Source: an uncultured Methanosarcinales archaeon (GTDB lineage Archaea; Nanobdellota; Nanobdellia; Woesearchaeales; DATDXC01). From it: DNA of 64,000 nt. Below are positions 16,943-46,608 of this stretch, one piece after another (the stretch's first letter is position 1; every line of letters starts with the position of its first letter). Below the pieces are notes generated by a model. It had not been told where the DNA came from and ran no database searches. It saw only the letters and a list, made by a program, of their open reading frames with translations. The stretch covers positions 11,143 to 75,142 of the forward strand of contig CAZDZV010000006.1 of assembly GCA_964510025.1 (NCBI GenBank), in the 5' to 3' direction. Made by a program: the position numbers and the translations under genes.

Positions 16943-16955
16943 AAAAGTTTATAAA
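16943..16955 (+). promoter_or_regulatory. BRE/TATA-like box AAAAGTTTATAAA upstream of the ParB-like gene
   Basis: Matches the recurrent A-rich/TTTATA promoter pattern seen upstream of other genes in this window. About 115 nt before ATG 17070. Confidence 0.4.
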
Positions 16956-16991
16956 CAATCTAAGCTAGAGCACTTCAGAAGGGGGTTGTTT

Positions 16992-17053
16992 AATATTGTT
17001 CAACCATTTAACAATATTCAACCATTTTACAATTAAACCACAGATTTATGGTT
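16992..17053. promoter_or_regulatory. repeat cluster in the leader of the ParB-like gene (candidate parS/operator)
   Basis: Inverted repeat AATATTGTT (16992-17000) / AACAATATT (17010-17018). Direct 11-mer TTCAACCATTT at 16999 and 17017. AACCA (17036) -N8- TGGTT (17049). Confidence 0.5.
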
Positions 17054-17069: not shown

Positions 17070-17882
17070 ATGGGCAGAATTCAGGAGAGATTAGAGCTAG
17101 CCTTGTCAGAATTCGCAGCTCAGGAAAAAAAGGAAAAAGAGAGTATACTATTTCTACCTTTGAGTGAAATAAAGCTTAATCCCAACAGGATAAGAAGAAA
17201 GATCAACAGAGAGGAGATTGCAGATATGGCTAACAACCTGAAGAAGTTTGGCATACTTCAGCCTCTTGAAATCAACGGAAAAAAAGAAGTGGTCCTGGGC
17301 AACAGGAGATTTGAGGCTGCAAAACTAGCTTCTTTGGAGAAGGTTCCTTGTGTAATACGCAACAGCTCAGACATCTTGGAGATGGAAAAACAGCTTGTTT
17401 CCGACCTTCACACAAAGCATCTAAGTGTGCTTGAGAGGGCAATAGCTTTTAGCACCCTTATGGAACTGAAGTCAATGACCAAATACGCGCTTGCAAAATA
17501 TCTAAATCTAAGCCACAACCTTGTATGCAGGACCTTGGCGCTGCTGAAAGCAAATGAGAATACCATGAGATTGATCAGGCTAGGCAGAATCAGCCAGAGA
17601 AAGGTAGCTATGGTTTTGTATAGGCTGAAAGACAAAAAAATGGAAGATTTCGTGATTCAGGAGATAATAGGCAGAAAGATGAATATAGTTCAGGCAGGAA
17701 ATTTCATAGCAGAGATAAATGATCCTGAGATATTCAAGAAGCATTTCTTGACAAGAATAAAGGCTTTCAAAACAACAGTGATGCACTTTAGGGAAAAGCT
17801 CGAAAAACTCAATCTTACCGAAGAGCAAAGAAAAGAGATTCTGGAAGAGCTAAGGTCCATTGATTTCAGTGAAATATTATGA
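17070..17882 (+). CDS. ParB/Spo0J/KorB-like protein (ParB N-terminal domain + HTH)
   Basis: 270 aa. LPLSEIKLNPNRIRRKIN...ILQPLEI...VLGNRRFEAAKLA contains the GxxRxxA arginine patch. HTH KYALAKYLNLSHNLVCRTLALLK. No ParA is nearby. ATGA overlap with the next gene. Confidence 0.75.
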   Translation: MGRIQERLELALSEFAAQEKKEKESILFLPLSEIKLNPNRIRRKINREEIADMANNLKKFGILQPLEINGKKEVVLGNRRFEAAKLASLEKVPCVIRNSSDILEMEKQLVSDLHTKHLSVLERAIAFSTLMELKSMTKYALAKYLNLSHNLVCRTLALLKANENTMRLIRLGRISQRKVAMVLYRLKDKKMEDFVIQEIIGRKMNIVQAGNFIAEINDPEIFKKHFLTRIKAFKTTVMHFREKLEKLNLTEEQRKEILEELRSIDFSEIL

Positions 17883-18718
17883 AGGTTGATTTCGATTTCC
17901 ATACCCATACTGACGTATCTGATGGTAGCTTAAGCCCTTCTGCCCTGGTCAGAAAAGCCAAGCGTGAAGGATTGAGGCTTATTGCGATAACAGACCACGA
18001 CAATATTGACGGTATACCTGAAGCAGTTGAGACTGGCAGGAAGATAGGTATTGATGTCATTCCGGGTGTGGAGATTAGCATTGACTTCAAGGCTACGATG
18101 CATATGTGCGGCTACTTCATCGACATAACTGATACCCAGCTCAGAAAAGCCCTGAAGTTTGTGCAGGATGCTCGCAGAGACAGAAATCCTCAGATTATCG
18201 ATAAGCTGAACAAGCTGGGCATGGATGTGAGGATTGAAGATGTTAAGAAACATGCAGGCAGGGATCAGATTGGAAGGCCCCATTTCGCAAAAGCGCTTAT
18301 CGAGAAAGGCTATGTTACGACAAAAGAAGAGGCCTTTGAAAAATATCTGGCAAAAGGCAGGCCGGCGTATGTAGACAAGAAGCGGCTTGACAGGGAGAAA
18401 GCAGTGAAGACCATCCTGGATGCAGGAGGCACTGCTGTCCTTGCGCATCCCAAGCAGCTTCGCCTGGACACTGCCAAAGAATACAGGAAGCTTTTTATGG
18501 AGATGAAGGAATTGGGCGTCTCTGGCATCGAAGCATACTCAAGCTGCCATACAGAAGATGAAAATAAGATGTTCAGGGAGATCGCTGATGAGCTGGGGAT
18601 GCTTGTCACCGGAGGCAGCGACTTCCATGGTGACACAAAACAAGATGTTGAACTAGGGGAATTCGGAGAGAACATTGATATTGACGTGGATAAGTTGGTT
18701 GAAAAGATGAAAGCATGA
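17879..18718 (+). CDS. PHP-domain phosphoesterase, COG0613 (TrpH/YciV-like); candidate 3',5'-bisphosphate nucleotidase
   Basis: 279 aa. DFHTHTDVSDGSLSPSALVRKAKREGLRLIAITDHDNIDG, ...AHP..., GGSDFHG. The stops and starts at both ends overlap as ATGA. Confidence 0.8.
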   Translation: MKVDFDFHTHTDVSDGSLSPSALVRKAKREGLRLIAITDHDNIDGIPEAVETGRKIGIDVIPGVEISIDFKATMHMCGYFIDITDTQLRKALKFVQDARRDRNPQIIDKLNKLGMDVRIEDVKKHAGRDQIGRPHFAKALIEKGYVTTKEEAFEKYLAKGRPAYVDKKRLDREKAVKTILDAGGTAVLAHPKQLRLDTAKEYRKLFMEMKELGVSGIEAYSSCHTEDENKMFREIADELGMLVTGGSDFHGDTKQDVELGEFGENIDIDVDKLVEKMKA

Positions 18719-20118
18719 GAGAAAAGCACATTTTCTGGCTTCTGCTTGTTTTTATTGTATATATGCATTTTGAAGACCTGGTGAAGCTCTATTTCAATTA
18801 TCATCCGATAGCGCATGGGTTCAAGTATGTTTTTGCCCTGGTATTCTTCCTTATATGGATTTTTCAGATTGGGGTAGTTAATACAAGATTTACGATACCT
18901 CTGGCTGTTTATCTGTTCTTTGTATTTGTCCAGTTCATAAATCCCCTCATGTTTGGAAAACAGGGCTTTATGTTGTCGGTTATTGGGTCGCTTTACTATA
19001 TAGCATTTGTGCCCTTGTTTTTTGTTGCCCATCGGGTATTTGATATAGAAAGGCTGAAAAAGACACTATGGATTGTCTTAGGCTTGGCTTGCTTTTCAGC
19101 TCTGGCAGCGCATATACAGTTCTTCCTTGGCTGGCAGAGATACCTCCAGCTGATGCCTTACAGCCATGAGATGTTCCTGAGGACCAAAAACTTTGTTTTC
19201 CATGGGCCTTTGGCTTTCAGCGTAAAGCCCCCAAGATACTGGTATGTTGCAGGCATAATGATCAGCAGCATTTTTGTTCTTTCTGAAAAGAAAAAGCTCA
19301 TAGCTGGCTTTCTGGGCCTTAACTGCTTGCTTGCTTTGGCCCTTTCAGGAATGAGGTTTGCCATGGCAGCTTCTTTTTTTTCCCTGATGATAGTCTTTTT
19401 CTTTGGACTAAGAAAGCAGAAAATATCTAATGCGATGAGGATAGCTGCAGTTTTGATACTGCTATTGACTATGTTTTTCCCTTTCTCGATGCTTCCCAAG
19501 CAAAGGTACATTCAGTTCATCACAAATCCTGTTGGTACATATATCCAGCAAAGAGGGAGGATGTGGCCACAGTTTTTCAGGGATATCGTCAAATATCCGT
19601 TAGGCACAGGATTGAGGGCCGGAGGGCATATTGACACCGAAAGGTTTAAGGTACCTGATGTATCGATGCGTGCCGGAGAAAACTACATAGCAGTCATCGC
19701 TTCCCAGATTGGCATATTTGGGCTGATTGCAGTGCTTTGGCTATATGTTGCGATAGCCCGAAAATTCTATGAAAACTTGTCCCTGAGGAGATTCAGATAT
19801 TTTGTCAGTCTGGGCATATTTGCCCTGCTATTTTCCTTTATGTTTGAGGTGGGTTTTTTCCCGGGAGAAGGCCCGAGCTACTGGATGTTCTGGCTGTTTT
19901 CAGGTGTCTTGTTCAAAATAGATAAGATGGAGGTACAAAAGATGCGAAAAACATATTCTTTGGCTAGCGAAAGTTTTTTTCTCAGGGGAATTCCTGATGT
20001 AAGGGTATGGCTCTTACAAAGCAAATTTGTCAAGCTGGGCCATAGGATATTCTGTTGTTTCAGGAATTCAAGGTTTTTTAGGTTTATTGAGAATATAGTC
20101 AAGTATGCGGAAATTTAA
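18715..20118 (+). CDS. polytopic membrane protein, O-antigen ligase/polymerase (Wzy_C)-like
   Basis: 467 aa, about 10-12 hydrophobic helices. The loop GTGLRAGGHIDTERF lies between helices, as in the Wzy_C family. Confidence 0.5.
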   Translation: MREKHIFWLLLVFIVYMHFEDLVKLYFNYHPIAHGFKYVFALVFFLIWIFQIGVVNTRFTIPLAVYLFFVFVQFINPLMFGKQGFMLSVIGSLYYIAFVPLFFVAHRVFDIERLKKTLWIVLGLACFSALAAHIQFFLGWQRYLQLMPYSHEMFLRTKNFVFHGPLAFSVKPPRYWYVAGIMISSIFVLSEKKKLIAGFLGLNCLLALALSGMRFAMAASFFSLMIVFFFGLRKQKISNAMRIAAVLILLLTMFFPFSMLPKQRYIQFITNPVGTYIQQRGRMWPQFFRDIVKYPLGTGLRAGGHIDTERFKVPDVSMRAGENYIAVIASQIGIFGLIAVLWLYVAIARKFYENLSLRRFRYFVSLGIFALLFSFMFEVGFFPGEGPSYWMFWLFSGVLFKIDKMEVQKMRKTYSLASESFFLRGIPDVRVWLLQSKFVKLGHRIFCCFRNSRFFRFIENIVKYAEI

Positions 20119-20893
20119 GGTCCTGGTTGCCATACTATCGCTGATTGTCGTCGTGGAACTAGTTTTGAGGTTATTCGGTTTTGGGAACCCTGTGCTCTAC
20201 GTTGAGGACCCGGATATAGGGTATCTGCCGAAAGCCAATCAAAGCATATACAGGTTTGGCAACAAAATATACTACAATGAATATCATCAAAGGTCTGATG
20301 ACCTGATGGCAGATCCAGACTATAGGGTATTTATGTTGGGTGATTCTGTCCTGAATGGTGGGACCTTAATAGACCAGAAAGATACAATCAGTGAGATATT
20401 AGAGAGGCAGTTAAATTCATTCTGTAATTGTAAAGGCGAGGTCCTAAGCGCATCTGCCAAAGGATGGGCAATAGAAAATGAGTATGAATACCTTAGAAAA
20501 TTCGGCACTTTTAATTCAAGTCTGATTATATGGGTGATAAATGAAGGTGATTTGTACCAAAAAAAGAATTTGGGCCGAGACTATCCGTCAAAACCTTACT
20601 TATTTGCTTTGTCTAAGGTATTTTTCCACTATCTGCGCCCGAGAAAATCCGCTTCTGGATCCCAGAATCCGCCGTTGTCCTTTCTTTCACTTTTGAAGAC
20701 TGACTCTCAAGTCGTTATAGTGCAAATACCTAAAAGAAGATCTACTTCAGGAAAGCTGGATATTCAATTAGAAAGAATTGATATCAGGCTTAGTGACAAT
20801 GCGTACAGGGATGATATCCACCTTAACAGGCAAGGCAATTATATTGCCAGTGAAATTATATTTTCCACTATTAAGGACAAAATATTAGACTGA
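20105..20893 (+). CDS. membrane-anchored SGNH/GDSL-type hydrolase
   Basis: 262 aa. N-terminal TM. Block I FMLGDSVLNGG and block V DDIHLN (DxxH). Confidence 0.6.
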   Translation: MRKFKVLVAILSLIVVVELVLRLFGFGNPVLYVEDPDIGYLPKANQSIYRFGNKIYYNEYHQRSDDLMADPDYRVFMLGDSVLNGGTLIDQKDTISEILERQLNSFCNCKGEVLSASAKGWAIENEYEYLRKFGTFNSSLIIWVINEGDLYQKKNLGRDYPSKPYLFALSKVFFHYLRPRKSASGSQNPPLSFLSLLKTDSQVVIVQIPKRRSTSGKLDIQLERIDIRLSDNAYRDDIHLNRQGNYIASEIIFSTIKDKILD

Positions 20894-20937
20894 AAATCAG
20901 CCGATTATTGAAAAGTCTCTGCTAAAATAATCATAAG

Positions 20938-21762
20938 ATGGAAGGATATTTGATAATAGCAGCTTACCAACAAAAGTTCCTTGAGATGGCCTCGAATCTA
21001 GCACTATCGATAAGGTTGAAGGATGACAGGCCAATAGCAATCGCAGTTAAGGACATTAAGGTTGATCCAGGCTCTAAAAGAATATTTGATCACATAATTG
21101 AGATACCGCATGAAAAGTCCAGAAAGGCGCATCTTAATAAGTTTATTATGAATGAACTTACCCCTTTCAGCAAAACGATGTACATTGATGCAGATTGCCT
21201 AATGGTCAAGGATGATATTTCTATTATTTGGAAAAAGCTAAAGAAATACAATTTCACAGTACAGGGGACCAAGGTGGAATATGGAAACCATAGAGGGATT
21301 GACGTTTTAAATGTCAAAGACAAACTTGGCATTCCTTATTTTGTAAAGTCAAATAGCGGATTAATTTATTTTGATAAAACTAAAAAAACAAAGAAAGTTT
21401 TTGAGAAATTGAATTGGTATTTGTTGAAAGATGAAAAGATACTGCGTGTTCCATTTCGCGGTCAAATCAAAGATGAGACTTATATCGGTGCTGTAATGGG
21501 GCACCTTGAGCTTGAACCATTTCCAGTTGTATTTAGACATTATTTTCAGCTCAAGCAATGGATGCAGTGTGTATCAGCTAGGTATTGTGCAGAGATCGAT
21601 GTTTTGAAAGGAAAATCCAAGATAACCTTCCGAGATGGCCATACTGATAGCCCAACGGTCGCGCACTTTGTCGGCTTTGTAGGCAAAAGGCAGCTTTATT
21701 TAAGGGAATCGAATAGGCTAAGAAAAGAATTTGGATTTTCTAAAAATAAGATTTTATGCTGA
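20938..21762 (+). CDS. putative GT-A-fold glycosyltransferase (GT8-like, DxD)
   Basis: 274 aa. MYIDADCLMVKDD is a DxD motif in a nucleotide-diphospho-sugar-transferase-like context. The family call is tentative. Confidence 0.4.
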   Translation: MEGYLIIAAYQQKFLEMASNLALSIRLKDDRPIAIAVKDIKVDPGSKRIFDHIIEIPHEKSRKAHLNKFIMNELTPFSKTMYIDADCLMVKDDISIIWKKLKKYNFTVQGTKVEYGNHRGIDVLNVKDKLGIPYFVKSNSGLIYFDKTKKTKKVFEKLNWYLLKDEKILRVPFRGQIKDETYIGAVMGHLELEPFPVVFRHYFQLKQWMQCVSARYCAEIDVLKGKSKITFRDGHTDSPTVAHFVGFVGKRQLYLRESNRLRKEFGFSKNKILC

Positions 21763-22667
21763 ATAGACCAAGTTGTACATTATCATTCTTCGTGGCAAGA
21801 ACAGATGTCTCATTTATGATGCATACCATACCCCATCTGGTGCGGATGGCTAATTATCCATTTAGTAAAAAAATTATTTTTGTAGATTCAAAGGATCTGA
21901 AAAGCGACAAGAAAAACCGGGCTAATATAGGGACACTAGAAGAAGTCAGAGATAAATGCAAGGAGCTGCAAGATCAGAATATAATTGATGAGATTATTGA
22001 CTTTGATTATACACATCCTATCGTAGCAGAGACATACAGAAAATATTTTGAAAAAAATTTGAGACATACCCATAATTGGAAAGGTTACCCGGTATATGGA
22101 AATCTTTTTGCAATTGAAAACTGCGATTCAGATTATTTATTGCATTTTGATAGCGACATACTAATGTATCAAGACAACAATTTTAGCTGGGTTGATGCGA
22201 GTATGAAGATAATGGGGGGTAATTGTAACATAGTTACGACCAGGCCCCTCGCAGGCCCATCTGAAAAATCTTCGCCAGGATATCACTTAAGCCAGACATT
22301 TGGAAGTCGATGCTATTTGATACATACTAAAAGACTTAAACAGATATTACCCCTGCCCCTTTTGGTAAGCTTCAGACGCACAAGAATACTGGATTCCTTT
22401 CCCCAGCGAATCAAAAAAAAGTTATATTTGAGTTTCGAAAAGGGCGAGCTGGATTCATGGGAATTGATGGTTGGAGCAGCGCTGAGGAAAAACAGGAAAT
22501 TTCGGGCAATACTATCTTCAGATAAGGCGTGGACTTTGCACCCAAAGGATCATGGTGAGCAATTTATTAGGTTGCTTCCCGAAATTATCCAGAGGATTGA
22601 GCATAAAGATTTTCCTTTGGAACAGGAAAAGAAATACGATCTTGATTTGAATTTATGGACTCGATAA
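21756..22667 (+). CDS. putative GT-A-fold glycosyltransferase
   Basis: 303 aa. KKIIFVDSKD ... LLHFDSDILMYQ (DxD). Tentative. Confidence 0.3.
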   Translation: MLNRPSCTLSFFVARTDVSFMMHTIPHLVRMANYPFSKKIIFVDSKDLKSDKKNRANIGTLEEVRDKCKELQDQNIIDEIIDFDYTHPIVAETYRKYFEKNLRHTHNWKGYPVYGNLFAIENCDSDYLLHFDSDILMYQDNNFSWVDASMKIMGGNCNIVTTRPLAGPSEKSSPGYHLSQTFGSRCYLIHTKRLKQILPLPLLVSFRRTRILDSFPQRIKKKLYLSFEKGELDSWELMVGAALRKNRKFRAILSSDKAWTLHPKDHGEQFIRLLPEIIQRIEHKDFPLEQEKKYDLDLNLWTR

Positions 22668-23683
22668 GAAAGAAACCAAAAATATTTTTCTATTTGCCTG
22701 AGGAATATCTTCCGCAAGGCCAGATACCAGAGGATTATACAGAATTCTGGGACTACTGTGTAAAGAACTGGAATGGGTACTATGCGGGAATTCTAGTCTG
22801 GACCCTTAAGACGTACCTATTGCTTAAAGATTATGTTTCATGCAAATTAGTTACAAACATTCCTGAAAAAGGGATAATCATTGCTCATAGAAAATCCTTA
22901 CCTGCAAAACCGAAGCCGAAGCAGCTCTTTGTTTGCATCAAGGCAGATAAGTCAGTACACCCATATTCGCAGATCCATCTGGTGCAAAATTCTTGTGACT
23001 GTCTCTTCAAAAGGTCACCCGGACTGTGGCAGACATACTATGTCCCCCGTTGGCCCCAGGATAAATTGAAGCCAAGGTCAAAATCGAGAGGCACAAGACT
23101 AGAGAATGTTGGTTATTATGGGGTAAGACGGGAGCTGGCCAAAGAGTTACAGTCTAAAAAATTTGAGAGACTTATGCAATCGAACGGTTTTAAGTGGCAT
23201 ATTTTTTCCAATCCGAAGAAGTGGGTTGATTACAGCAAAACAGATGCTATTGTAGCGGTTAGGAGTTTTAAAAAACAGGGATTCAATAATAAGCTAGCGT
23301 CTAAACTATATAATGCGTGGCGAGCAGGTGTACCTGTATTATTGGGGCCAGAGACAGCTTATCAAAATGAGAAAAAAAGCCGGTTTGATTATATGGAAGT
23401 AAATTCAGCAAATGAAATAATCTCAGCACTTAAAAGCTTAAGAAAGAATCATAGGTTATACAAGCAAATGGTGAATAATGGAATTATCCGATCCAAAGAG
23501 GTCAGTCAGAATAAGATTATCGGTCTTTGGAAATCTTTTTTGGTGAATGTTGCAGTTCCTGCATATCGAAGGCACTGTAAAAATCGTATTTCCACTAACA
23601 TGTTCCTGCTGCAGAGATATTTTTATAACGTATATTATCAACTTCATTTTAAATTTAGGTCGAAAATTTTGTATGGCATATAA
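22655..23683 (+). CDS. putative GT-B-like glycosyltransferase
   Basis: 342 aa. C-terminal NNKLASKLYNAWRAGVPVLLGPE resembles the GT-B donor-binding helix. Tentative. Confidence 0.3.
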   Translation: MDSIRKKPKIFFYLPEEYLPQGQIPEDYTEFWDYCVKNWNGYYAGILVWTLKTYLLLKDYVSCKLVTNIPEKGIIIAHRKSLPAKPKPKQLFVCIKADKSVHPYSQIHLVQNSCDCLFKRSPGLWQTYYVPRWPQDKLKPRSKSRGTRLENVGYYGVRRELAKELQSKKFERLMQSNGFKWHIFSNPKKWVDYSKTDAIVAVRSFKKQGFNNKLASKLYNAWRAGVPVLLGPETAYQNEKKSRFDYMEVNSANEIISALKSLRKNHRLYKQMVNNGIIRSKEVSQNKIIGLWKSFLVNVAVPAYRRHCKNRISTNMFLLQRYFYNVYYQLHFKFRSKILYGI

Positions 23684-27667: not shown

Positions 27668-27668
27668 T

Positions 27669-28598: not shown

Positions 28599-28612
28599 TC
28601 TGCAAGAAGAAA

Positions 28613-30303: not shown

Positions 30304-30309
30304 CATAAT

Positions 30310-38053: not shown

Positions 38054-38170
38054 GGATTCTTTACATTGTCTAAATGAAGGATATAATAGCTCAAGCTACA
38101 ACAAGATGAAACTAAGTACGATACAAATTAAAGAAAGGATTGTAGGTTTGTTCAGTTTAGTAGGAACAAG

Positions 38171-38935: not shown

Positions 38936-40059
38936 AAGTCCTGGAAGTGATATCATCACTGAATCCTAGAACAGGCGGCACTGCTGAATCCCTAAAGCAA
39001 CTGGAAAAGATACTGTCCAGCAAGCATACTATAGAAATACTCTGTCTTGATAAACCAAAATCTCCATGGCTAAGGGATTTCAAAAGCAAGATATATGCCT
39101 TGGGTCCAGCAATCACCAGATATGCATTTTCTAAAAGGCTTCTAGGTTGGCTAAGAAAGAATGCAGTCAGCTATGATTGCATTATAGTCAATGGCATATG
39201 GCAATATGTGGGTTTTGCTGTATGGCTCATCCTAAAAAATTCCGAAACACCGTATTTTATCTATGCACATGGAATGCTGGATCCTTGGTTTAAAAAAAAC
39301 TATCTTATCAAGCATTTAAAGAAGTCAATTTATTGGCCTATCCAATACAGAATACTAAAAGACGCAGAAGCGGTTGTTTTTAACTGCAAGGAAGAAGCCC
39401 GGTTAGCCTCAAAATCATTCTGGCCAAATAGATGGAATTCAAAAATAATTAGTCATGGCATCTTTAAGCCGCCTGTCAACAAATCTCATCTTGTTGCCGG
39501 CTTTTTGGACAGATACAAAATACCTAGAAACCAGAATTTAATCCTCTTTTTGGGACGCATACACGAAAAAAAAGGCATTGATAACCTGGTGAAATCATTC
39601 GCAGAACTTAGCTCCGATTACCGCTTAATCATTGCCGGTCCTGAGTCAGCCTACGGCAATAGGATGAAAAGGCTTGCAAAAAAACTCGGTATCAGCCACA
39701 AAATTACATGGACAGGGATGCTCGAAAACGACCTAAAATGGGGTGCTTTCTATGCATCAGATGCATTTATTCTTCCTTCTCATCAAGAAAACTTTGGGAT
39801 TGCAGTAGTAGAAGCTTTGGCATGTGGATTGCCTGTCTTGATTTCAGATAAGGTGAATATATGGAAGAAGATTTATGATTTCAGTGCGGGTTTTGTTGAG
39901 AATGATAGCCTTGAAGGAACTTCAAAATTGTTGAAAAGATGGCATCTAGCTAGTGAAGAGAAAAAGAAAAAGATGGCTAAGTCAGCGAAAATTTGTTTTG
40001 AGTCTAACTTTGATATAAACAAGAATATCAGCCAGTTGATTAGGCTTGTCAGTAAATGA
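38932..40059 (+). CDS. GT4 glycosyltransferase
   Basis: MKVLEVISSLNPRTGG ... FILPSHQENFGIAVVEALACGLPVLISDKVN. Confidence 0.85.
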   Translation: MKVLEVISSLNPRTGGTAESLKQLEKILSSKHTIEILCLDKPKSPWLRDFKSKIYALGPAITRYAFSKRLLGWLRKNAVSYDCIIVNGIWQYVGFAVWLILKNSETPYFIYAHGMLDPWFKKNYLIKHLKKSIYWPIQYRILKDAEAVVFNCKEEARLASKSFWPNRWNSKIISHGIFKPPVNKSHLVAGFLDRYKIPRNQNLILFLGRIHEKKGIDNLVKSFAELSSDYRLIIAGPESAYGNRMKRLAKKLGISHKITWTGMLENDLKWGAFYASDAFILPSHQENFGIAVVEALACGLPVLISDKVNIWKKIYDFSAGFVENDSLEGTSKLLKRWHLASEEKKKKMAKSAKICFESNFDINKNISQLIRLVSK

Positions 40060-41021
40060 ATGTGAAAAAAGACATCTCAATAGTCATCCCGACATATAAC
40101 GGCTCAAGGTACCTGCCCGAAGTGTTAAACGCTTTGAGGAATCAGGAAGGCCTAAAGGAGATATCCTGGGAGGTTATTGTCGTAGATAATAACAGCACAG
40201 ACACTACGCCGAAGATCGTCGAAGAATTTCAGAAAAAATGGGATATGGACAATAAATTAAGGTATCTTGTTGAAAAAAGACAAGGCGCAGCGTATGCGAG
40301 GGAAACTGGTGTAAGAAATGCAAAAAGCAAGATTATTGGGTTTCTTGATGATGATAATATTCCTGAGAAGAACTGGATCCTGGAAGCTTATAGATTTGGG
40401 TCTGAACATCATGAAGCAGGAGCATGGGGGAGTAGGATCAAAGCAAGATATGAAAAAATGCCGCCTGAAAATTTCGATAGCATAAAGATGTATTTTGCGA
40501 TTATGGAAAAAGGGGAAAATGCTTATTGTTCTGAAGCTAAAAAATTTGTCTTGCCCCCTAGTGCTGGTCTTGTGGTAAGAAAAGATATATGGCCCGCATC
40601 ACCTTTATTGCTAACTGGAAGAACAAAGGAAACATGGCTAGCTGGTGAAGATATAGAGCTATTAGTTAGAATACAGAATAAAGGCTATGGAATATGGTAC
40701 AATCCAAGGATGGAAATTACACATATAATACCTGCTGCAAGGCTTGAGCCAGAATATGCCATTAACTTGATGAAAGGGATTGGATTATGCAAATACATAA
40801 CCAGGATGTTGAGACAATATGTATTGGCTAGACCTGTGGCCATAGTGGGATATTGTATTTCAGATTTTTTAAAGATGATGAAATTTATGCTCAGGTTCCG
40901 AGCCAAAATAATAAAAGATGCTCTGCTGAAGGCTGAATTTTTTTTATATCTGTACAGTTTTTATAGCCCTTTTTATTTTTTATTTAGATACCCAAAAAAG
41001 TTTTTTCTGATAGGAAAATGA
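40056..41021 (+). CDS. GT2 glycosyltransferase
   Basis: ISIVIPTYNGSRYLPEVLNALRNQ...WEVIVVDNNSTDTT...FLDDDNIP. Confidence 0.85.
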   Translation: MNVKKDISIVIPTYNGSRYLPEVLNALRNQEGLKEISWEVIVVDNNSTDTTPKIVEEFQKKWDMDNKLRYLVEKRQGAAYARETGVRNAKSKIIGFLDDDNIPEKNWILEAYRFGSEHHEAGAWGSRIKARYEKMPPENFDSIKMYFAIMEKGENAYCSEAKKFVLPPSAGLVVRKDIWPASPLLLTGRTKETWLAGEDIELLVRIQNKGYGIWYNPRMEITHIIPAARLEPEYAINLMKGIGLCKYITRMLRQYVLARPVAIVGYCISDFLKMMKFMLRFRAKIIKDALLKAEFFLYLYSFYSPFYFLFRYPKKFFLIGK

Positions 41022-41833
41022 CAAAAATTAAAGATGCTGTTGATAAAGCATATATCATTTGTCATAGCTCATCCACTGAAGAATTATCCAAGAGTTTAAC
41101 AAAGAACAATTTAGATGTAGAAGAATTAAGACAAAAACCTAAAAAAAGTTGGAATAAATATTCAAACATATACAAATGCTTGCTTAATCACGAAAGGGCA
41201 TGGAAAAAAGCACTGAACAATGAATTTACATTGATAGTTGAAGAGGATTTTGTACCTGTTAGTAATTTTGGAGACTTTTCTTTACCATTTGATCCAAAAA
41301 AGGATTTTGGAATCTGCTGGATTTATTACTGCGGACCAAGGATTTATAGTGCTTCAGACACAGGCTATATAGAAGGTGGTGCAACTTCCCTAGTTGCATA
41401 TATAATAAACAAAAAAAGCGCAGCGCTTCTAATCGAATTTGCCAAAAAAATGAAAAAAACTATGAAGGGAAAGTATTATCCATTTGATTCAGATATAGAC
41501 GGTTATTTTATAAAGAAAGGATTGAAAAACTATATCGCTTTCAGAAACTATGGCGAGCATGGCGGGCTTCCGAATCCTGAACACAGGCAGAATAAAACAG
41601 GAAACCAAGGTATACACAGGGCTGATGTGTTGGCCGGAAAACTTGATTTTATGCCCCTTTATTCCAAGCACAATATCATTATATATATCGTTGTAAGGAT
41701 AAAGGCAAGAATCAAGGGACTAGTACGTTTATTCAGCGGAAGATATTTAAGGCCAAAGATCTTCTGCTCATCAAGCTTTCCGTTGAGGCTTTTGAAGTGT
41801 GCGATTAAAAGGCATTTGACATGGAACCTATGA
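41018..41833 (+). CDS. GT25-like glycosyltransferase
   Basis: AYIICHSSSTEE ... CLLNHERAWKKALNNEFTLIVEEDFVP resembles the LPS/LOS GT25 pattern (C.LSH..W...liLEDD). Confidence 0.45.
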   Translation: MTKIKDAVDKAYIICHSSSTEELSKSLTKNNLDVEELRQKPKKSWNKYSNIYKCLLNHERAWKKALNNEFTLIVEEDFVPVSNFGDFSLPFDPKKDFGICWIYYCGPRIYSASDTGYIEGGATSLVAYIINKKSAALLIEFAKKMKKTMKGKYYPFDSDIDGYFIKKGLKNYIAFRNYGEHGGLPNPEHRQNKTGNQGIHRADVLAGKLDFMPLYSKHNIIIYIVVRIKARIKGLVRLFSGRYLRPKIFCSSSFPLRLLKCAIKRHLTWNL

Positions 41834-42384
41834 AAGACTTGCTTAAAGGGACAGTTGCATCTGCCGGCCCAAGTTTTAGCTTGAGCAACAGGTTTAGAAG
41901 AGCTGTCTGGAATCTGGTATATCATGTTATGTTCAGGTTATCTCCGGTGTTTTTTCATGAGTGGCGCTCTATCCTGCTAAGGCTGTTCGGGGCAGAAATC
42001 GGCAAAGGCTGCCACATATACCCAAGAGCAGCAATATGGGCCCCGTGGAACCTTAAAACAGGTGATTTTGTAGGCATAGCCGATGATGTGAAGCTTTATA
42101 ACCAGGCAGAGATAGTCATAGGTGACCTCACAGTAATCTCACAAGGGTCCCATATATGTACCGGCACACATGATTATCAGAAAAAGGCGTTTCCGGTCAT
42201 CATCAAGCCAGTTACCATAGGAAAAAGGGCCTGGATATGCGCTGATGCATTCATACATCCGGGAGTCAGCATCGGCGAAGGGGCAGTTGTCGGAGCTAGA
42301 TCTGTTGTGACTAGAGATATTAAGAAATGGACAGTCTGCGCTGGAAATCCGTGCACTGAGATTAGGAAAAGAAATGTTATATAA
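41821..42384 (+). CDS. hexapeptide-repeat O-acetyltransferase (WcaF-like)
   Basis: ILLRLFGAEIGKGCHIYPRAAIWAPWNLKTGDFVGIADDVKLYN...IGDLTVISQGSHICTGTHDY...GARSVV. An alternative start is ATG 41830 in an ATGA overlap. Confidence 0.8.
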   Translation: MEPMKDLLKGTVASAGPSFSLSNRFRRAVWNLVYHVMFRLSPVFFHEWRSILLRLFGAEIGKGCHIYPRAAIWAPWNLKTGDFVGIADDVKLYNQAEIVIGDLTVISQGSHICTGTHDYQKKAFPVIIKPVTIGKRAWICADAFIHPGVSIGEGAVVGARSVVTRDIKKWTVCAGNPCTEIRKRNVI

Positions 42385-43222
42385 TCTTACTATAGTCATT
42401 CTCACATTCAATTCAGCAAGAACAATCAACGAAGTTGTTTCTTCATGCAGGCATTTGTCTGAAAAAATACTGGTTGTGGACTCATACAGCAAGGATGACA
42501 CTGTTAAGATTGCAAGGTCTCTCGGATGCAAAGTCCTGCAGCATACGTTCAAGGATTACTCGACGCAAAGGAACTGGGCGCAGCAGAAAGTAAGAACTCA
42601 ATGGGTTCTGCATCTCGATAGTGATGAGATAATCTCCAAGAAACTGGCTGACAGCATCCAGGCAGCTTTCTCAAAAAAATCAGATAATGACGGCTATCTT
42701 ATGAAAAGGCTTACTTATTTTATGGGCAAGCCAATCAGATTTGGCCACATGAACCCAAACTGGCACCTGAGGCTTTTTAAGGTCAAGACCGGATATTGTG
42801 AGGACAGGTTGTATGACCAGCATTTTATCGCAAAAGGCAATCTCGCAAGATTGGACGGCTACATATTGGATGTTCCCAAAAAATCTGTAGAAGAATGGAT
42901 AGATAATCATAATCGATGGTCGACAGCAGAAGCAGAGGAGCTCTTGTCTGGAAATTCTTTATGCAAGAGCCTGCCTGGGAAACTTAACAAGGATCCCAGA
43001 ATAAGGAAAAGGCTGATAAAGAATAATGTGTATTACAGGCTACCGCCGCTTGTCAGGCCTTTTATCTTCTTTGGTTACAGCTACATCGTGCGGCTGGGCT
43101 TTTTAGATGGACGGGCGGGATTTATATACAGCATACTCCAGTCTTTCTGGTTCCGGTTCCTGGTGGATGTGAAAATTCTAGAAAGGAAAATCTTTATAAA
43201 ATACGCTAGATTCAGGAGATAA
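42374..43222 (+). CDS. GT2 glycosyltransferase
   Basis: LTIVILTFNSARTINEVVSSCRHLSEKILVVDSYSKDDT ... HLDSDEII. Confidence 0.8.
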   Translation: MLYNLTIVILTFNSARTINEVVSSCRHLSEKILVVDSYSKDDTVKIARSLGCKVLQHTFKDYSTQRNWAQQKVRTQWVLHLDSDEIISKKLADSIQAAFSKKSDNDGYLMKRLTYFMGKPIRFGHMNPNWHLRLFKVKTGYCEDRLYDQHFIAKGNLARLDGYILDVPKKSVEEWIDNHNRWSTAEAEELLSGNSLCKSLPGKLNKDPRIRKRLIKNNVYYRLPPLVRPFIFFGYSYIVRLGFLDGRAGFIYSILQSFWFRFLVDVKILERKIFIKYARFRR

Positions 43223-43223
43223 G

Positions 43224-44444
43224 ATGAAGTTAGTGGATGATAAAGGGAAAGTCTTGGGAAGGATAAACATATTTGATCTGATGATAGTCATACTGGTTTT
43301 TTTGCTTCTGTTGCAGGGGACTATCCATATAGCTAGGAACTGGACACTTTCCGAGCCTGAACAGGTTCTTGTTAAGATAAAAGGTGAGCTCTGCAATGTT
43401 GATTCCAGCCTGAAAACAAGAGATTGTGGCTCTTCATTGCCAGAATATTTTTACGACAATATCTACATCGGACAGGCTATGAGAAGCAAGGGCGAAATTA
43501 TAGCCAAGGTTGATAAGATAGAAGCCATAGGTGAAACAGAAGCCAAAAAGATTGTTCTCACGCTTGAGGTCAGGGCACAGCTTCAGGACAATGAGCTTAC
43601 CTTTCTGGGCCAAGAGCTGAAGATCAACAGAAGATTTGTATTCGCTACGCCGACGATTAATTTTGGGGTGAATGTCATATATCTTGACAGCAATATCATT
43701 GAGCAGGCAGCCGAGACCATAACCGATGCAACTGCAAACCGGCAAACCAGGATATATGATGGCTGGGATTCTGTCATAGGGGAGTTGTGCACTTTGGATG
43801 AGGCAGATCACGCAAAAGAATGTGGAATAGATATTCCGGACTGGTTTGTCAATCGTATCGAAAATCTGGGGACTATTGAAGATAAGAATGCGATTATCAA
43901 GGTTCAGGAGATAAGGCAGATGATGGTAGACCAGATGACAACTGTCATCATCCTTAACTTAACCACCTATGACAATGAAGCCAAAGAAAAGATGTTTCAG
44001 GGGGTACCTTTGAAGATAAACAATAGGCTGGTTGTAAAAAGTCCCCAAATTAATTTTGGGGTAAAGATATTGAATATCGGGACTGGGCTTCCTGAAGAAT
44101 CCAGGCTTCACGAAAAAACAATAATACTGAAAATAGAAAATCTGGAGCCGGAAATATTCAACAGTATACAGGAAGGCATGACAGAGAAAAACAACAACAA
44201 TGAAGTTATAGCTGAGATAGTTGGCAAGACAGTCCAGCCCCACATTTTGCTGTTGACTACAGAAGATGGCCAGCTGCTGACAGAAGAGCATCCGATAAAC
44301 AAGGATATCACCCTGGAGACCCTTATAAAAGCATCGAAATCCAGGGATTACTATTATAACGGGCAGCTCGTTAAGATCGGAAATCCCCTCACAGTAAAGA
44401 CCGATATTATGGATTTAAATGGAGAGATAATAGCGATATCTTGA
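43224..44444 (+). CDS. DUF4330-like membrane-anchored protein with internal duplication
   Basis: N-terminal MKLVDDKGKVLGRINIFDLMIVILVFLLL is DUF4330-type. Repeated ELKINRRFVFATPTINFGVNVIYLD / PLKINNRLVVKSPQINFGVKILNIG. Confidence 0.55.
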   Translation: MKLVDDKGKVLGRINIFDLMIVILVFLLLLQGTIHIARNWTLSEPEQVLVKIKGELCNVDSSLKTRDCGSSLPEYFYDNIYIGQAMRSKGEIIAKVDKIEAIGETEAKKIVLTLEVRAQLQDNELTFLGQELKINRRFVFATPTINFGVNVIYLDSNIIEQAAETITDATANRQTRIYDGWDSVIGELCTLDEADHAKECGIDIPDWFVNRIENLGTIEDKNAIIKVQEIRQMMVDQMTTVIILNLTTYDNEAKEKMFQGVPLKINNRLVVKSPQINFGVKILNIGTGLPEESRLHEKTIILKIENLEPEIFNSIQEGMTEKNNNNEVIAEIVGKTVQPHILLLTTEDGQLLTEEHPINKDITLETLIKASKSRDYYYNGQLVKIGNPLTVKTDIMDLNGEIIAIS

Positions 44445-45595
44445 TTGAAGTGAATATTCTTACAAGGGATTTCTTCCCAGACTACAGTGCGGTGGCTAAA
44501 AAGATGACCGGGCTAGCAGAGGATCTTACAGCTGCCGGCATAGACGTTCAGGTATACACAGCTAATCCGCAGTATTACTGCAGAGAAAAGCCTGAAAAGC
44601 GCAGAAATATCAGAAGGGTTTTATGCACCTCGTTCGATAAGGATAATCTCTTATTGAGGGCCATTAATGAGGTTAGCTTTGGAATATCAATATTTGCTAT
44701 CTTGCTTTTTTCGAAAAAAAAGATGAATATAATCCCCTCTCTTCCATTTTCGCTTCAGCTCTCTGCTCTCCTTTTAAGGAAAATAAGAAACCAGGATTAC
44801 ATCATAATAAACTATGAGATTATGCCCGAACTTATGTGTTCCTCCGGTCTAATGTCATATGATGGCCCCTTCTTCCGGATGCTCAACAAGATAGCCAAGA
44901 AAGTGCTTGATAACGCCAGGTGCATTATTACTTTAACTGCATCTATGAGCAAAAAGCTGGAAAGCAAGGTCAGAAAAAAGATAGTGACTATCCCGAATTG
45001 GACTGACACAGATGTCTATTACCCCATCAAAAGAAAAGAAAACGAATTCTTGAGAAGAAACAAGCTTTCAGATAGCTTCGTTGTATCATACTCAGGTAAT
45101 TTCGGCAGGTACATGGATTTTGATACTGTACTTAAGGCTGCGGAGCTTTTGCCCCAGATAAGATTTCTTTTTATAGGTAATGGGGCGCAAAAGGGCAGAA
45201 TAACCAAGGCAGACAATATTTTTTATCATGATTATCTGCCAAACTCAAGGATCAATGAATCTCTGAATTCCGGAAATATAGCATTGGTGCTTACAAACCA
45301 GAAAGATGACGATTATGTTATGCCGAGCAAGATCCTTGACCTGATGGCTGCTGGAAGGCCAATAGTTGCTGTATCAAGAAATTCGGAGATTAAAAAGATA
45401 ATTGCCAGGTCAAGGAACGGGTTTGTTGTAAATCCTGGAGAACCAGATAGCCTAAAAAGAGCTATTCTGGCCCTGAAGAACGACAAAAAATTGCAGAAAG
45501 AAATGGGCAAAAACTCAAGGGATTATGCTGCTAGACATTTTTCCAGAAAGAAGATTACCGGGCAGTATGTTGAACTGCTGAAGAAAAATTTATAA
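44441..45595 (+). CDS. GT4 glycosyltransferase (WcaI-like)
   Basis: 384 aa. TTG start in a TTGA overlap. YVMPSKILDLMAAGRPIVAVSRNSE. Confidence 0.6.
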   Translation: MIEVNILTRDFFPDYSAVAKKMTGLAEDLTAAGIDVQVYTANPQYYCREKPEKRRNIRRVLCTSFDKDNLLLRAINEVSFGISIFAILLFSKKKMNIIPSLPFSLQLSALLLRKIRNQDYIIINYEIMPELMCSSGLMSYDGPFFRMLNKIAKKVLDNARCIITLTASMSKKLESKVRKKIVTIPNWTDTDVYYPIKRKENEFLRRNKLSDSFVVSYSGNFGRYMDFDTVLKAAELLPQIRFLFIGNGAQKGRITKADNIFYHDYLPNSRINESLNSGNIALVLTNQKDDDYVMPSKILDLMAAGRPIVAVSRNSEIKKIIARSRNGFVVNPGEPDSLKRAILALKNDKKLQKEMGKNSRDYAARHFSRKKITGQYVELLKKNL

Positions 45596-45617
45596 ACTAC
45601 CTGCCTAGGCGAAGATT

Positions 45618-46229
45618 ATGGGCATTCTGAAAAGGGTTTTGGATTTTGGGATAGCTGCCATAGCTTTAGCTGTTTCTCTGCCGGTCTTCATCACAATTTC
45701 GGCCCTTATAGTGGCAGATTCAGGCTTCCCTGTTTTTTTTAGTCAGCGGAGGGTAGGCCATAGGCAGAAAAAATTTACCCTGTATAAATTTCGCACAATG
45801 GTTAAAGATGCCGAAAAGATCAAGCACAGGTACAAGAAGCTTGATTATACTGACGGGCCTGTTTTTAAGATTAGAAAAGATCCAAGATACACAAAAATAG
45901 GGCTTTTCCTTGCAAAGACGAGCTTGGATGAGCTACCTCAGCTTTTCAACGTCCTGAAAGGTGACATGTTCATTGTTGGGTTTAGGCCGCCTACACCTGA
46001 AGAGGTAAAAGAGTATAAAGAATGGCAGCTTGAGCGTTTTAAGGGCTATCCTGGGATTACATCTCTTTGGGCCATATCGGGGATGCACAATATAAGGTTT
46101 GATGACTGGATAAAGATGGATATAAAATACAGCAAAAAAGCCAATTTTTTTCTGGATATGAAAATAGTTGCAAAAACAGTCACAAAAATCATAGAAAACA
46201 TATATGCTTCACTTAAACACGGTCTGTAG
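45618..46229 (+). CDS. monotopic phosphoglycosyl transferase (Bac_transf; PglC / WbaP C-terminal type)
   Basis: 203 aa. Re-entrant helix LDFGIAAIALAVSLPVFITISALIV. RVGHRQKKFTLYKFRTM, GPVFKIRKDPRYTKIG, DELPQLFNVLKGDMFIVGFRP. Confidence 0.85.
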   Translation: MGILKRVLDFGIAAIALAVSLPVFITISALIVADSGFPVFFSQRRVGHRQKKFTLYKFRTMVKDAEKIKHRYKKLDYTDGPVFKIRKDPRYTKIGLFLAKTSLDELPQLFNVLKGDMFIVGFRPPTPEEVKEYKEWQLERFKGYPGITSLWAISGMHNIRFDDWIKMDIKYSKKANFFLDMKIVAKTVTKIIENIYASLKHGL

Positions 46230-46571: not shown

Positions 46572-46608
46572 ATTTCTTCAATATTGAAACCAAGATATAA
46601 AAATATTG

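Follow-up and report, generated by a model that had tools for sequence, protein, structure and literature searches.

The glycan-assembly systems closest to the locus described here are cyanobacterial exopolysaccharide (EPS) gene clusters that carry sulfotransferase genes, among them the synechan cluster xss of Synechocystis sp. PCC 6803. The xss cluster encodes Wzx, a polysaccharide copolymerase (PCP), a two-component/STAND regulator, 2 sulfotransferases, and 8 glycosyltransferases that account for an 8-sugar unit (PMC8205485). In Archaea, sulfated glycans are known and the sulfotransferases are uncharacterized (PMC11625862), and the DPANN archaea are reported to be rich in glycosyltransferases (PMC12153355). 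Here we describe a block of 31 consecutive open reading frames (ORF1 to ORF31) at positions 17070 to 46229 of a 64,000-nucleotide stretch of an uncultured archaeon (the window; contig CAZDZV010000006.1 of assembly GCA_964510025.1, positions 11,143 to 75,142). Like xss and the other cyanobacterial sulfotransferase-bearing EPS clusters (Maeda et al. 2021, PMC8205485), the block holds a priming transferase, many glycosyltransferases, sulfotransferases of the PF00685/PF13469 type, and a Wzy-type protein, and genes for the synthesis of 3'-phosphoadenosine 5'-phosphosulfate (PAPS) are found in neither. Unlike xss, it has no Wzx or PCP; it carries instead a fused ATP-binding cassette (ABC) exporter, 15 to 20 transferases, three sulfotransferases, a predicted phosphatase for 3'-phosphoadenosine 5'-phosphate (PAP), a ParB protein, and a DUF4330 protein, and its host is an archaeon without an outer membrane.

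Two further bacterial systems and two archaeal loci share parts of this layout. The Hep system of Anabaena/Nostoc (hepA, hepC, and hepE, considered here with the hps genes) combines an MsbA-type exporter with a Bac_transf priming enzyme, as does the block. HepA is the best model for the exporter ORF21 (504 bits), ORF27 matches HpsU, ORF31 matches HepC weakly, and the predicted structure of ORF7 resembles HepE (4XSU) among the GT-B enzymes. These scores lie below the equivalog cutoffs, so the proteins would be relatives rather than orthologues; the host domain and the envelope differ as well, and to our knowledge the HEP and HPS polysaccharides are not known to be sulfated. The Pgl system of Campylobacter jejuni shares with the block a priming enzyme of about 200 amino acids (aa) with a single hydrophobic segment (PglC), extension by glycosyltransferases of family 4 (GT4; PglA/H/J), and an ABC protein with fused transmembrane and nucleotide-binding domains (TMD-NBD; PglK) in place of Wzx. 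The block departs from it in the low score of ORF21 against the PglK model (246 versus a cutoff of 1000), in the lack of PglB/AglB in the window, and in its Wzy_C protein, many more transferases, and sulfation genes. Within Archaea, a megaplasmid of Salinigranum rubrum (NZ_CP026310) encodes DUF4330, a Wzy_C protein of the O-antigen ligase family, and a fused ABC exporter of 603 aa that shares 29% identity with ORF21. A megaplasmid of Haloplanus sp. GDY1 (NZ_CP098515) encodes DUF4330 and a Bac_transf transferase that shares 34% identity with ORF31, along with GT2/GT4 genes. These haloarchaeal loci differ from the block in that the DUF4330 identity is 20 to 22%, the genes lie on both strands, nucleotide-sugar genes are present, and no sulfotransferase is annotated; moreover, a pairwise comparison of ORF3 with the Wzy_C protein of S. 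rubrum showed no similarity. The ABC, PAP-phosphatase, and priming components are relatives, not equivalogs, of HepA/MsbA/PglK, Cv1693, and WbaP/PglC, respectively. Highly modular polysaccharide clusters are a kind already known, and the block recombines known modules, which makes it a modest conceptual advance; what sets it apart is its size, its DPANN host, its three sulfotransferases with a predicted PAP phosphatase in the same cluster, and its cyanobacterial affinities.

We consider it probable that these genes form a real glycan-assembly island resident in the chromosome of a DPANN (Woesearchaeota-type) archaeon and that the island works as a lipid-carrier pathway. The host assignment draws on the translation factor aIF5B encoded in the left flank: all of the organism-named relatives among its best 120 matches are Woesearchaeota, Nanoarchaeota, or Nanoarchaeia (one is named just "archaeon"), at 62 to 75% identity. 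The left flank also encodes the archaeal proteins Trm1, RNA 3'-phosphate cyclase, and a DUF7343 winged helix-turn-helix (wHTH) protein, and the right flank encodes two lumazine-synthase-fold proteins, a CTP-dependent riboflavin kinase, and DUF460. Because of these aIF5B relatives and archaeal flank genes, the host is taken to be a DPANN archaeon of the Woesearchaeota type, in keeping with the archaeal host assumed in an earlier first-pass annotation of this DNA. The transferase-rich glycan-assembly block with sulfation and acetylation functions that the same annotation had proposed is likewise supported by the Pfam and NCBIfam families described below.

The ORF listing of the window places exactly 31 consecutive ORFs on the + strand between 17070 and 46229, with no credible competing long ORF on the - strand across this interval. 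Analysis of start codons and junctions located 4-nt ATGA/GTGA/TTGA overlaps at 17879, 18715, 26088, 26912, 29473, 31215, 33126, 35152, 38932, 40056, 41018, and 44441, and exactly four gaps of more than 10 nt (20894-20937, 44 nt; 28599-28612, 14 nt; 38054-38170, 117 nt; and 45596-45617, 22 nt). The gene count, the twelve overlaps, and the four gaps first reported for this block were thus all reproduced. Five junctions would overlap by 20 to 137 nt if the longest-ORF starts were taken; the downstream starts 23673, 27669, 29473, 32221, and 36956, with which the beginnings of the Pfam domains agree, reduce these to overlaps of 13 nt or less or a 1-nt gap. Altogether, at 27 of the 30 junctions the genes overlap or stand at most 14 nt apart, and this close spacing suggests translational coupling. 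In the flanking parts of the window, genes on one strand follow each other in runs of 1 to 6, and a run of at least 31 genes is far beyond chance by a rough estimate (P ~1e-7 at a switch rate of ~0.4 per junction). The co-directional run really comprises 32 genes, as the wHTH/DUF7343 gene at 16287-16934 likewise lies on the + strand, and its right limit is a convergent wHTH ORF on the - strand (46209-46571) that overlaps ORF31 by 21 nt. The GC content of individual genes within the block ranges from 32% to 47%. Recent tandem duplication of the glycosyltransferase genes was considered and is ruled out by the identity of only 20 to 44% among the paralogues.

Glycosyltransferases make up the largest part of the block, and all of the genes described here lie on the + strand. 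Eight ORFs pass the Pfam threshold for family GT2. Seven are clear matches to Glycos_transf_2, namely, ORF9 (24185-25051; E = 2e-27), ORF14 (28613-29476; 5.5e-36), ORF16 (30310-31218; 7.3e-35), ORF18 (32221-33129; 1.5e-31), ORF19 (33126-34034; 2.8e-18), ORF25 (40056-41021; 1.8e-30), and ORF28 (42374-43222; 6.7e-16), and the divergent GT2-like ORF13 (27648-28598) is a partial match (2.4e-06; 28 bits versus a cutoff of 23.3). Six more belong to GT4: ORF10 (25051-26091; Glycos_transf_1, 2.2e-16), ORF17 (31215-32231; Glycos_transf_1, 3.1e-14), ORF20 (34022-35155; Glycos_transf_1, 7.1e-40), which also weakly matches the PglH and PglJ models, ORF22 (36956-38053; Glycos_transf_1, 8.1e-19, and Glyco_transf_4, 8.8e-14; start uncertain between 36884, 36956, and 37016), ORF24 (38932-40059; 1.6e-31), and ORF30 (44441-45595; 1.7e-15). 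Pfam thereby confirms the seven clear GT2, six GT4, and one GT2-like enzymes counted in the first-pass annotation. The family of ORF7 (22655-23683) has no Pfam model of its own. It comprises 1112 representative homologues, and PF13524 is matched by 28 of 60 of them. An AlphaFold (AF2) model built from the family alignment (pLDDT 94, pTM 0.90) was compared with the PDB by Foldseek, and the 50 best matches listed were all GT-B enzymes (E = 7e-8 to 1.5e-5), including SdgB, SenB, HepE, and MshA; the predicted structure points to a GT-B glycosyltransferase fold. With the 14 Pfam-supported GT2/GT4 proteins, this gives 15 well-supported glycosyltransferases, all without a signal peptide and predicted to be soluble or at most weakly membrane associated.

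Beyond these 15, two ORFs are candidates with moderate support. ORF11 (26088-26915) belongs to the Npun_R2821/R2822 family (NF045582; 264 bits versus a cutoff of 250) and is a GT8/GT71-like GT-A candidate: a profile of the family with ORF5 aligned matched the GT71 mannosyltransferase Mnt2 (6e-4) and GT8 glycogenin (0.06 to 0.2) over the DxD region. ORF5 itself (20938-21762), alignable with the ORF11 family at 19% identity, is a candidate GT-A (GT8-like) enzyme with a DxD motif and two subthreshold matches (Glyco_transf_8, E = 0.022; Nucleotid_trans, 0.079). Three more ORFs show a DxD motif or faint hints only. ORF6 (21756-22667) is a conserved protein with a DSD motif that matched no hidden Markov model (HMM) or PDB entry in Pfam, NCBIfam, and single-sequence PDB searches. 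ORF12 (26912-27667) is a conserved candidate GT-A protein in which the residues D85 and D87 of the DxD motif are invariant in 6 homologues; it has no HMM or PDB match, a profile search of the PDB included. ORF26 (41018-41833) had been called GT25-like; the hint is faint, as Glyco_transf_25 was matched at only 13.1 bits versus a cutoff of 24 (E = 0.087), and NCBIfam gave no match. The "up to about 20 transferases" proposed earlier is therefore an upper bound by Pfam, NCBIfam, and structural modelling, with 15 well supported, 2 moderately supported, and 3 speculative.

The sulfation genes are spread through the same run. ORF8 (23673-24194) is a Sulfotransfer_4 protein (2e-32, 113 bits), ORF15 (29473-30303) matches Sulfotransfer_1 and Sulfotransfer_3 (3.8e-15 and 1.7e-14; 56 and 55 bits), and the divergent ORF23 (38171-38935) matches Sulfotransfer_3 in its N-terminal part only (1.4e-06) and marginally (29.1 bits versus a cutoff of 27). 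PAPS-binding motifs of both the 5'-phosphosulfate-binding (5'-PSB) and the 3'-phosphate-binding (3'-PB) type could be read in all three sequences: SKTGTTS and RNPHDWYVS in ORF8, AKAGTTS and RNPIDRAYS in ORF15, and ARTGSTL and RKNQLRQSLS in ORF23. ORF27 (41821-42384) is a WcaF-family hexapeptide O-acetyltransferase (NF007797, 195.4 bits versus a cutoff of 192; Hexapep, 1.6e-12). The three sulfotransferases and the WcaF-like acetyltransferase of the first annotation hold, two of them (ORF23 and ORF27) only just above the cutoff. ORF4 (20105-20893) is a membrane-anchored extracytoplasmic protein (N-terminal transmembrane [TM] segment at residues 6-24) with SGNH-like motifs. It had been labeled an SGNH esterase; the GDS and DxxH motifs are present, recognized by eye, and no Pfam, NCBIfam, or PDB match accompanies them, which makes ORF4 a candidate O-acetyl esterase or transferase.

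Genes for priming, export, and surface assembly complete the inventory. ORF31 (45618-46229) encodes a small (203 aa) monotopic phosphoglycosyl transferase, a priming enzyme (Bac_transf, 2.8e-58). Its match to the EPS_sugtrans/WbaP models is confined to their C-terminal catalytic domain, and it carries a DELPQ motif (the DE motif) and one N-terminal hydrophobic segment. ORF21 (35152-36963) is a fused TMD-NBD ABC exporter of the HepA/MsbA type (ABC_membrane, 3.4e-22; ABC_tran, 2.3e-35). Its best NCBIfam model is HepA_fam_ABC (NF045513; 503.8 bits versus a cutoff of 725), followed by MsbA (422 bits) and PglK (NF050066; 245.8 bits versus a cutoff of 1000), and it stays below the equivalog cutoff of all three. 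ORF3 (18715-20118) is a polytopic Wzy_C protein (1e-07; 32.3 bits versus a cutoff of 31.7) with about 10 to 11 TM segments in a hydropathy scan. ORF29 (43224-44444) is a type II membrane-anchored extracellular protein with DUF4330 repeats (9.7e-21) and a single N-terminal TM segment (residues 16-34); a search for homologues among 5.8e9 proteins returned the self-match only, and we propose it as an extracytoplasmic assembly or anchoring accessory. Clearly predicted TM segments are confined to ORF3, ORF4, ORF21, ORF29, and ORF31, and only ORF3 and ORF21 are polytopic. The assignments made earlier for the Wzy/ligase-like protein, the ABC exporter, DUF4330, and the priming transferase all hold. 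None of the 31 ORFs matched the Wzx/MOP family in Pfam or NCBIfam, no Wzz/GNVR (PCP) match was found in the block (ORF29, with its single TM segment, is unrelated by HMM), and ABC2_membrane, expected for a separate Wzm/Wzt pair, had no match in the block either. The block therefore fails membership of the canonical Wzx/Wzy pathway, having the priming enzyme without Wzx and PCP, and of the Wzm/Wzt ABC-dependent pathway, its exporter being fused. Wzx, PCP/Wzz, AglB/STT3, PAPS-synthesis, and nucleotide-sugar genes were absent from all window ORFs scanned, which for the block itself bears out the first-pass statement that it holds no Wzx, nucleotide-sugar, or PAPS-synthesis genes.

Domain identities in the pathway that we propose come from the search results, and the order of its steps is modelled on established lipid-carrier glycan pathways. 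ORF31, a monotopic phosphoglycosyl transferase of PglC size, would prime polyprenyl phosphate on the cytoplasmic face of the membrane. The chain would then be extended in the cytoplasm by the eight GT2 enzymes, the six GT4 enzymes, and the GT-B protein ORF7, with up to five further candidates, and decorated by the cytoplasmic PAPS-dependent sulfotransferases ORF8, ORF15, and ORF23 and the acetyltransferase ORF27. ORF2 would hydrolyze the inhibitory by-product PAP to AMP. The ABC half-transporter ORF21 would carry the lipid-linked glycan across the membrane, replacing the missing Wzx; outside, ORF3 would polymerize units or transfer the glycan to an acceptor, and the membrane-anchored ORF4 (SGNH-like) and ORF29 (DUF4330) would act on the product at the surface. 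PAPS and nucleotide sugars would have to come from genes beyond the window.

Several points weigh against this reading. All functions are assigned by homology, and four ORFs (ORF4, ORF6, ORF12, and ORF26) match no HMM above threshold, while Wzy_C in ORF3 and the sulfotransferase domain in ORF23 clear their thresholds by only 0.6 and 2 bits. The substrate carried by an exporter of the HepA/MsbA type cannot be read from its sequence. ORF2 scores below the equivalog cutoff of its best model (241 versus 400) and its fold family includes the 5'-3' exoribonuclease RNase AM, and ORF1, a ParB protein, has no place in the proposed model. No gene for the supply of PAPS or nucleotide sugars was found in the window ORFs scanned, which matters since the organism is expected to be biosynthetically limited. 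Lastly, candidate internal promoters, described below, speak against a single unit.

Relatives of the block were sought in a metagenome scan seeded with the family alignment of ORF7, which gave 80 loci, and all 31 ORFs were compared with these loci by tblastn. Two cyanobacterial loci, L028 and L086, hold homologues of ORF6, ORF7, ORF11, ORF12, ORF13, and ORF15 at 35 to 51% identity, together with GT4 genes and a second sulfotransferase. Within this set, the ORF6 homologues of L028 and L086 are 41 to 42% identical, ORF11 is 50 to 51% identical to homologues that occur there in two or three tandem copies, ORF12 is syntenic with the cyanobacterial loci, ORF13 is 35 to 46% identical to its homologues in L028 and L049, and ORF15 is 36 to 39% identical to cyanobacterial homologues. 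Beside ORF7 homologues, ABC genes like ORF21 were found in 14 loci and GT2 genes like ORF25 (36 to 47% identical) in 12. The HIP1 palindrome is a cyanobacterial hallmark, and among the 54 loci that are 5 kb or longer, 38 contain at least 3 copies, versus an expectation of less than 0.7. The stretch from ORF6 to ORF15 and the ABC gene are thus syntenic with cyanobacterial polysaccharide loci bearing sulfotransferases, and because the same set of homologues recurs in loci rich in HIP1, the central island appears to share ancestry with them. A large part of the island is probably of bacterial ancestry, and for ORF2 the nearest relatives come from FCB-group and KSB1 bacteria. The description of the enzyme mix as bacterial in style is upheld by the cyanobacterial synteny and the bacterial relatives of ORF2, and is qualified by the DUF4330 glycan loci on the two haloarchaeal megaplasmids. 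A metagenome scan with ORF11 found nothing, and in loci found with RtcA (relatives 42 to 59% identical) the 31 ORFs had no tblastn matches beyond generic ABC and GT4 ones. In the cyanobacterial contigs L028 (11795-14837), L086, and L060, tandem Npun_R2821/R2822 paralogues stand beside homologues of ORF12, ORF7, ORF6, and ORF13 and sulfotransferases, a module that presumably serves a sulfated polysaccharide; we found no literature on the Npun_R2821-R2823 family or on DUF4330.

This distribution bears on whether the block is one pathway. It might instead be a composite of at least two glycan pathways or transcription units lying head to tail, for example, a cyanobacteria-like module of ORF6 to ORF15 with the ABC gene, and a GT2/GT4 set with its own priming enzyme, in which case the 15 to 20 transferases would not make one giant repeat unit. 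Cyanobacterial syntenic counterparts exist only for ORF6-ORF15, ORF21, and ORF25; the spread of GC content among the genes fits such a composition; and 15 to 20 transferases would be exceptional beside synechan, with its 8 glycosyltransferases for 8 sugars (PMC8205485). Promoter-like signals add to this. The window has its own archaeal-type motif resembling a B recognition element and TATA box (BRE/TATA-like), AAAGNTTTATAWA, which as a pattern match occurs 15 times in the whole window versus 3.3 expected. Its matches are mostly intergenic and lie roughly 20 to 115 nt upstream of starts on the matching strand; several stand at ~20 to 30 nt, which would suggest short or absent leaders. Two BRE/TATA-like matches lie inside the block, 22 to 24 nt upstream of the start codons of ORF29 (43188) and ORF31 (45584), and weaker ones lie at 25535 and 37970, which makes internal promoters plausible. 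Because of these candidates and the 117-nt gap at 38054-38170, a single operon, the "one transcription unit" of the first-pass annotation, is unproven. Scans of the window for sigma-70 promoters and intrinsic terminators stayed at chance level, as expected for an archaeon. On the other side, the block has a single priming transferase, a single exporter, and a single Wzy_C protein; the 27 overlapping or closely spaced junctions suggest translational coupling; and the promoter motif is itself a pattern match. We regard a composite block as a possibility of some substance that falls short of being probable.

A second alternative concerns the product rather than the gene set. For ORF3, the roles of polymerase, ligase, and O-oligosaccharyltransferase are all conceivable, as Pfam Wzy_C spans polymerases, WaaL ligases, and PglL-type O-oligosaccharyltransferases alike. 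If ORF3 has one of the latter two roles, in the manner of PglL/WaaL/WsaB, the block would build a long lipid-linked oligosaccharide once, to be flipped by the ABC protein as by PglK and moved by ORF3 onto a lipid or a surface protein (S-layer or pilin). The block lacks a chain-length regulator (PCP/Wzz), many different transferases suit a long nonrepeating chain, and the combination of a small PglC-like transferase and a fused ABC protein resembles that of Campylobacter Pgl, to which the PglK score of ORF21 and the weak PglH/PglJ matches of ORF20 also point. Yet ORF21 is nearer to HepA and MsbA than to PglK, the relatives of the central module sit in cyanobacterial loci of polysaccharide type, and no acceptor protein is identifiable; this alternative appears to us doubtful, though worth keeping in view. 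The "very long repeat unit" proposed at first is accordingly one of several readings, and several glycans, or an oligosaccharide for protein glycosylation that is built once, fit equally.

The first two genes of the run had been left out of the earlier inventory, and neither is a glycan enzyme in the sense listed there. ORF2 (17879-18718) encodes a PHP-family enzyme resembling 3',5'-nucleoside-bisphosphate (PAP) phosphatases. Its top NCBIfam model is the nucleoside-bisphosphate phosphatase NF041577 (240.7 bits, below the equivalog cutoff of 400), and its best PDB match is the PAP phosphatase Cv1693 (2YB1; 1.4e-38 over 252 residues), a PHP/amidohydrolase-superfamily enzyme of Chromobacterium violaceum. 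The ligands of the trinuclear metal site of the PHP fold are aligned between ORF2 and 2YB1 throughout (HxH, SDG, DHD, VEIS, H, AHP, and SDFH). The closest relatives of ORF2 are bacterial, 50 to 62% identical, and belong to Chitinispirillaceae, KSB1, Marinimicrobia, and Fidelibacterota. In all five contexts examined, relatives with 54 to 62% identity adjoin or lie 1 to 2 genes from genes of PAPS synthesis, namely, those for APS kinase, CysD, and CysN-CysC, or for a Sat-CysC fusion. Two loci (L010 and L012) place an ORF2-like PHP gene amid polysaccharide-biosynthesis genes, which in L010 include Wzz/BY-kinase and Poly_export; the remaining contexts have sugar-modification or GT2 genes nearby. 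Sulfotransferases release PAP, which inhibits them, and for this reason ORF2 is best read as a predicted PAP-recycling member of the sulfation module. The earlier statement that the block has no PAPS synthesis is correct; support for sulfation would nonetheless be present in the form of this PAP phosphatase-type enzyme. A PHP-type PAP phosphatase beside PAPS-synthesis genes, seen in five of five contexts, is also a reusable clue for annotating sulfation loci. As a side observation, the combination of a TrpH/Cv1693-type PHP gene with PAPS-synthesis genes recurs in bacterial metagenome or metagenome-assembled genome contigs (L010, L011, L012, L096, L097, and L098), and the PHP gene of L012 additionally adjoins TauE and a CitMHS/TrkA_C permease. 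An assignment of ORF2 as a PHP tyrosine phosphatase of the CpsB/Wzh type was also considered and rejected, all PDB and NCBIfam matches being of the TrpH/Cv1693/RNase AM type.

ORF1 (17070-17882) encodes a bacterial-type ParB/Spo0J/Noc protein (ParB_N, 3.4e-16; HTH_ParB, 2.7e-11) that passes the TIGR00180 parB_part model (90.1 bits versus a cutoff of 58.45), matches Spo0J (4e-24) and Noc (5e-23) in the PDB, and is 27 to 33% identical to bacterial ParB/Noc. No partner ParA was found among the window ORFs scanned, and no parS-like site was identified; the only repeat nearby, at 16988-17022, is unrelated. ORF1 may act as a regulator. Both genes could, however, be housekeeping genes that merely head the run, ORF1 as a segregation or nucleoid protein and ORF2 as a 5'-3' exoribonuclease of the RNase AM/TrpH type, with no link to sulfation. 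ORF1 is a canonical ParB/Noc protein, no ParB occurs in any of the five bacterial contexts of ORF2 relatives, the GC content of ORF2 (47%) is above that of its neighbors, and RNase AM comes second among its matches (RNase RNM model, 197 bits; Escherichia coli RNase AM, 7UG9, 1.4e-33). The E. coli enzyme (YciV/TrpH) is a relative of Cv1693, and a preference of ORF2 for PAP over RNA 5' ends is only predicted. Set against this are the first rank of the nucleoside-bisphosphate phosphatase model and the PAP phosphatase structure, the proximity of close relatives to PAPS-synthesis genes, the ATGA overlaps at both the ORF1/ORF2 and the ORF2/ORF3 junctions, and the three PAP-producing sulfotransferases in the same run, so that a housekeeping role for the pair seems unlikely.

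Upstream of ORF1, several candidate regulatory elements were recognized by pattern matching. A BRE/TATA-like match stands upstream of ORF1, where a candidate promoter on the + strand has the TATA-like sequence AAAAGTTTATAAA (16943-16955). Between this TATA-like box and the ORF1 start lies a candidate operator (16988-17022, + strand), an 18-nt tandem direct repeat that doubles as a 16-nt inverted repeat (TTTAATATTGTTCAACCA / TTTAACAATATTCAACCA) and that we take to be unlike parS and unlike the Noc-binding site. The co-directional gene further upstream (16287-16934, + strand; DUF7343, 9e-15, and HTH_24) encodes a 215-aa protein in which a signal/TM segment, an extracellular part, and a second TM segment are followed by a C-terminal DUF7343/winged-helix domain. 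Three tandem BRE/TATA-like motifs (AAAGCTTTATA) stand upstream of this gene at 16154, 16174, and 16204 (region 16154-16216). Its product could be tethered to the membrane and regulate the glycan genes; whether the gene belongs to the block is uncertain.

The probable placement of the block as a resident island in the DPANN chromosome also depends on the integrity of the contig. Tetranucleotide correlation between block and flanks is 0.92 to 0.94, near the value between the two flanks (0.93 to 0.955), while a foreign restriction-modification island with 29% GC in the same window (52 to 58 kb) reaches only 0.77 to 0.81. No HIP1 site occurs in the window, versus 3 to 58 in the related cyanobacterial loci. 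An independently assembled Logan contig (SRR7048224; 1.7 kb) is 100% identical over 44993-46665 and so reproduces the right junction, covering ORF30, ORF31, the convergent ORF, and the end of the lumazine synthase gene. Ten proteins were looked up in a 15-billion-protein collection, and the eight that were found were all singletons at 90% identity. These data are consistent with a block that is resident in the archaeal chromosome and compositionally near the host genome, and the tetranucleotide continuity, the lack of HIP1, the archaeal flanks, and the Logan contig answer the concern, raised with the first annotation, that the segment might be a misassembled bacterial fragment. That the 17- to 46-kb segment is a bacterial (e.g., cyanobacterial) fragment misassembled or misbinned into an archaeal contig could be argued from the best relatives of several genes, which are bacterial, and from the GC content (35 to 38% in the block center versus 41 to 45% in the flanks), but it would require two chimeric joins between archaea-specific genes on either side of the same contig, the identity to bacterial relatives is merely 35 to 62%, and the window's own BRE/TATA-like motif is present inside the block, which together with the composition, HIP1, and junction data makes such an origin highly improbable.

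DPANN archaea are believed to spend their lives on the surface of hosts, to which they attach, and we know of no DPANN surface glycan. If the preferred reading of one lipid-carrier pathway is true, an island of about 29 kb for one elaborate, probably sulfated glycan would provide a handle on how these cells build their surface and perhaps attach; it would represent about 2 to 3% of the genome if the genome is about 1 Mb. ORF8, ORF15, and ORF23 are testable candidates for archaeal glycan sulfotransferases. We tentatively entertain the broader idea, itself far from assured, that a genome-reduced DPANN archaeon coats itself with a sulfated and acetylated heteroglycan of cyanobacterial type from a laterally acquired 29-kb island, recycling PAP with its own enzyme and drawing PAPS, nucleotide sugars, and the lipid carrier from elsewhere in its genome or from its host. 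If true, Archaea would have their first genetically delineated pathway for a sulfated glycan, with candidates for glycan sulfotransferases and for the function of DUF4330.

Other parts of the window offer additional observations; no tRNA or Rfam family was found in it. The gene at 228-2774 (+ strand) encodes an 848-aa protein with Laminin_G_3 (concanavalin-like) and MopE-type metal-binding motifs; this large protein is probably located at the cell surface and could serve as a glycan acceptor or adhesin. A 654-aa membrane protein with a PF10131 PTPS_related domain is encoded at 59724-61688 (- strand); we take this domain to be generally regarded as GT-C-like, and the protein could be a further surface-glycosylation enzyme outside the block. 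The region at 51900-58977 is a low-GC (29 to 33%) island with a DpnII-type restriction endonuclease, a D12 (Dam-type) methyltransferase, an AAA_15/DUF3226 ATPase, and an N4/N6 methyltransferase, and with two phage-integrase-family genes at its right end (56496-57113, + strand; 58216-58977, - strand); it looks like a recently acquired mobile defense island. Next to the block, at 46609-48657 (- strand), a string of genes encodes lumazine synthase, an unassigned 174-aa ORF, a second lumazine-synthase-fold protein that is probably an archaeal riboflavin synthase, and a MarR-fused CTP-dependent riboflavin kinase, which shows that this DPANN genome keeps some cofactor biosynthesis.

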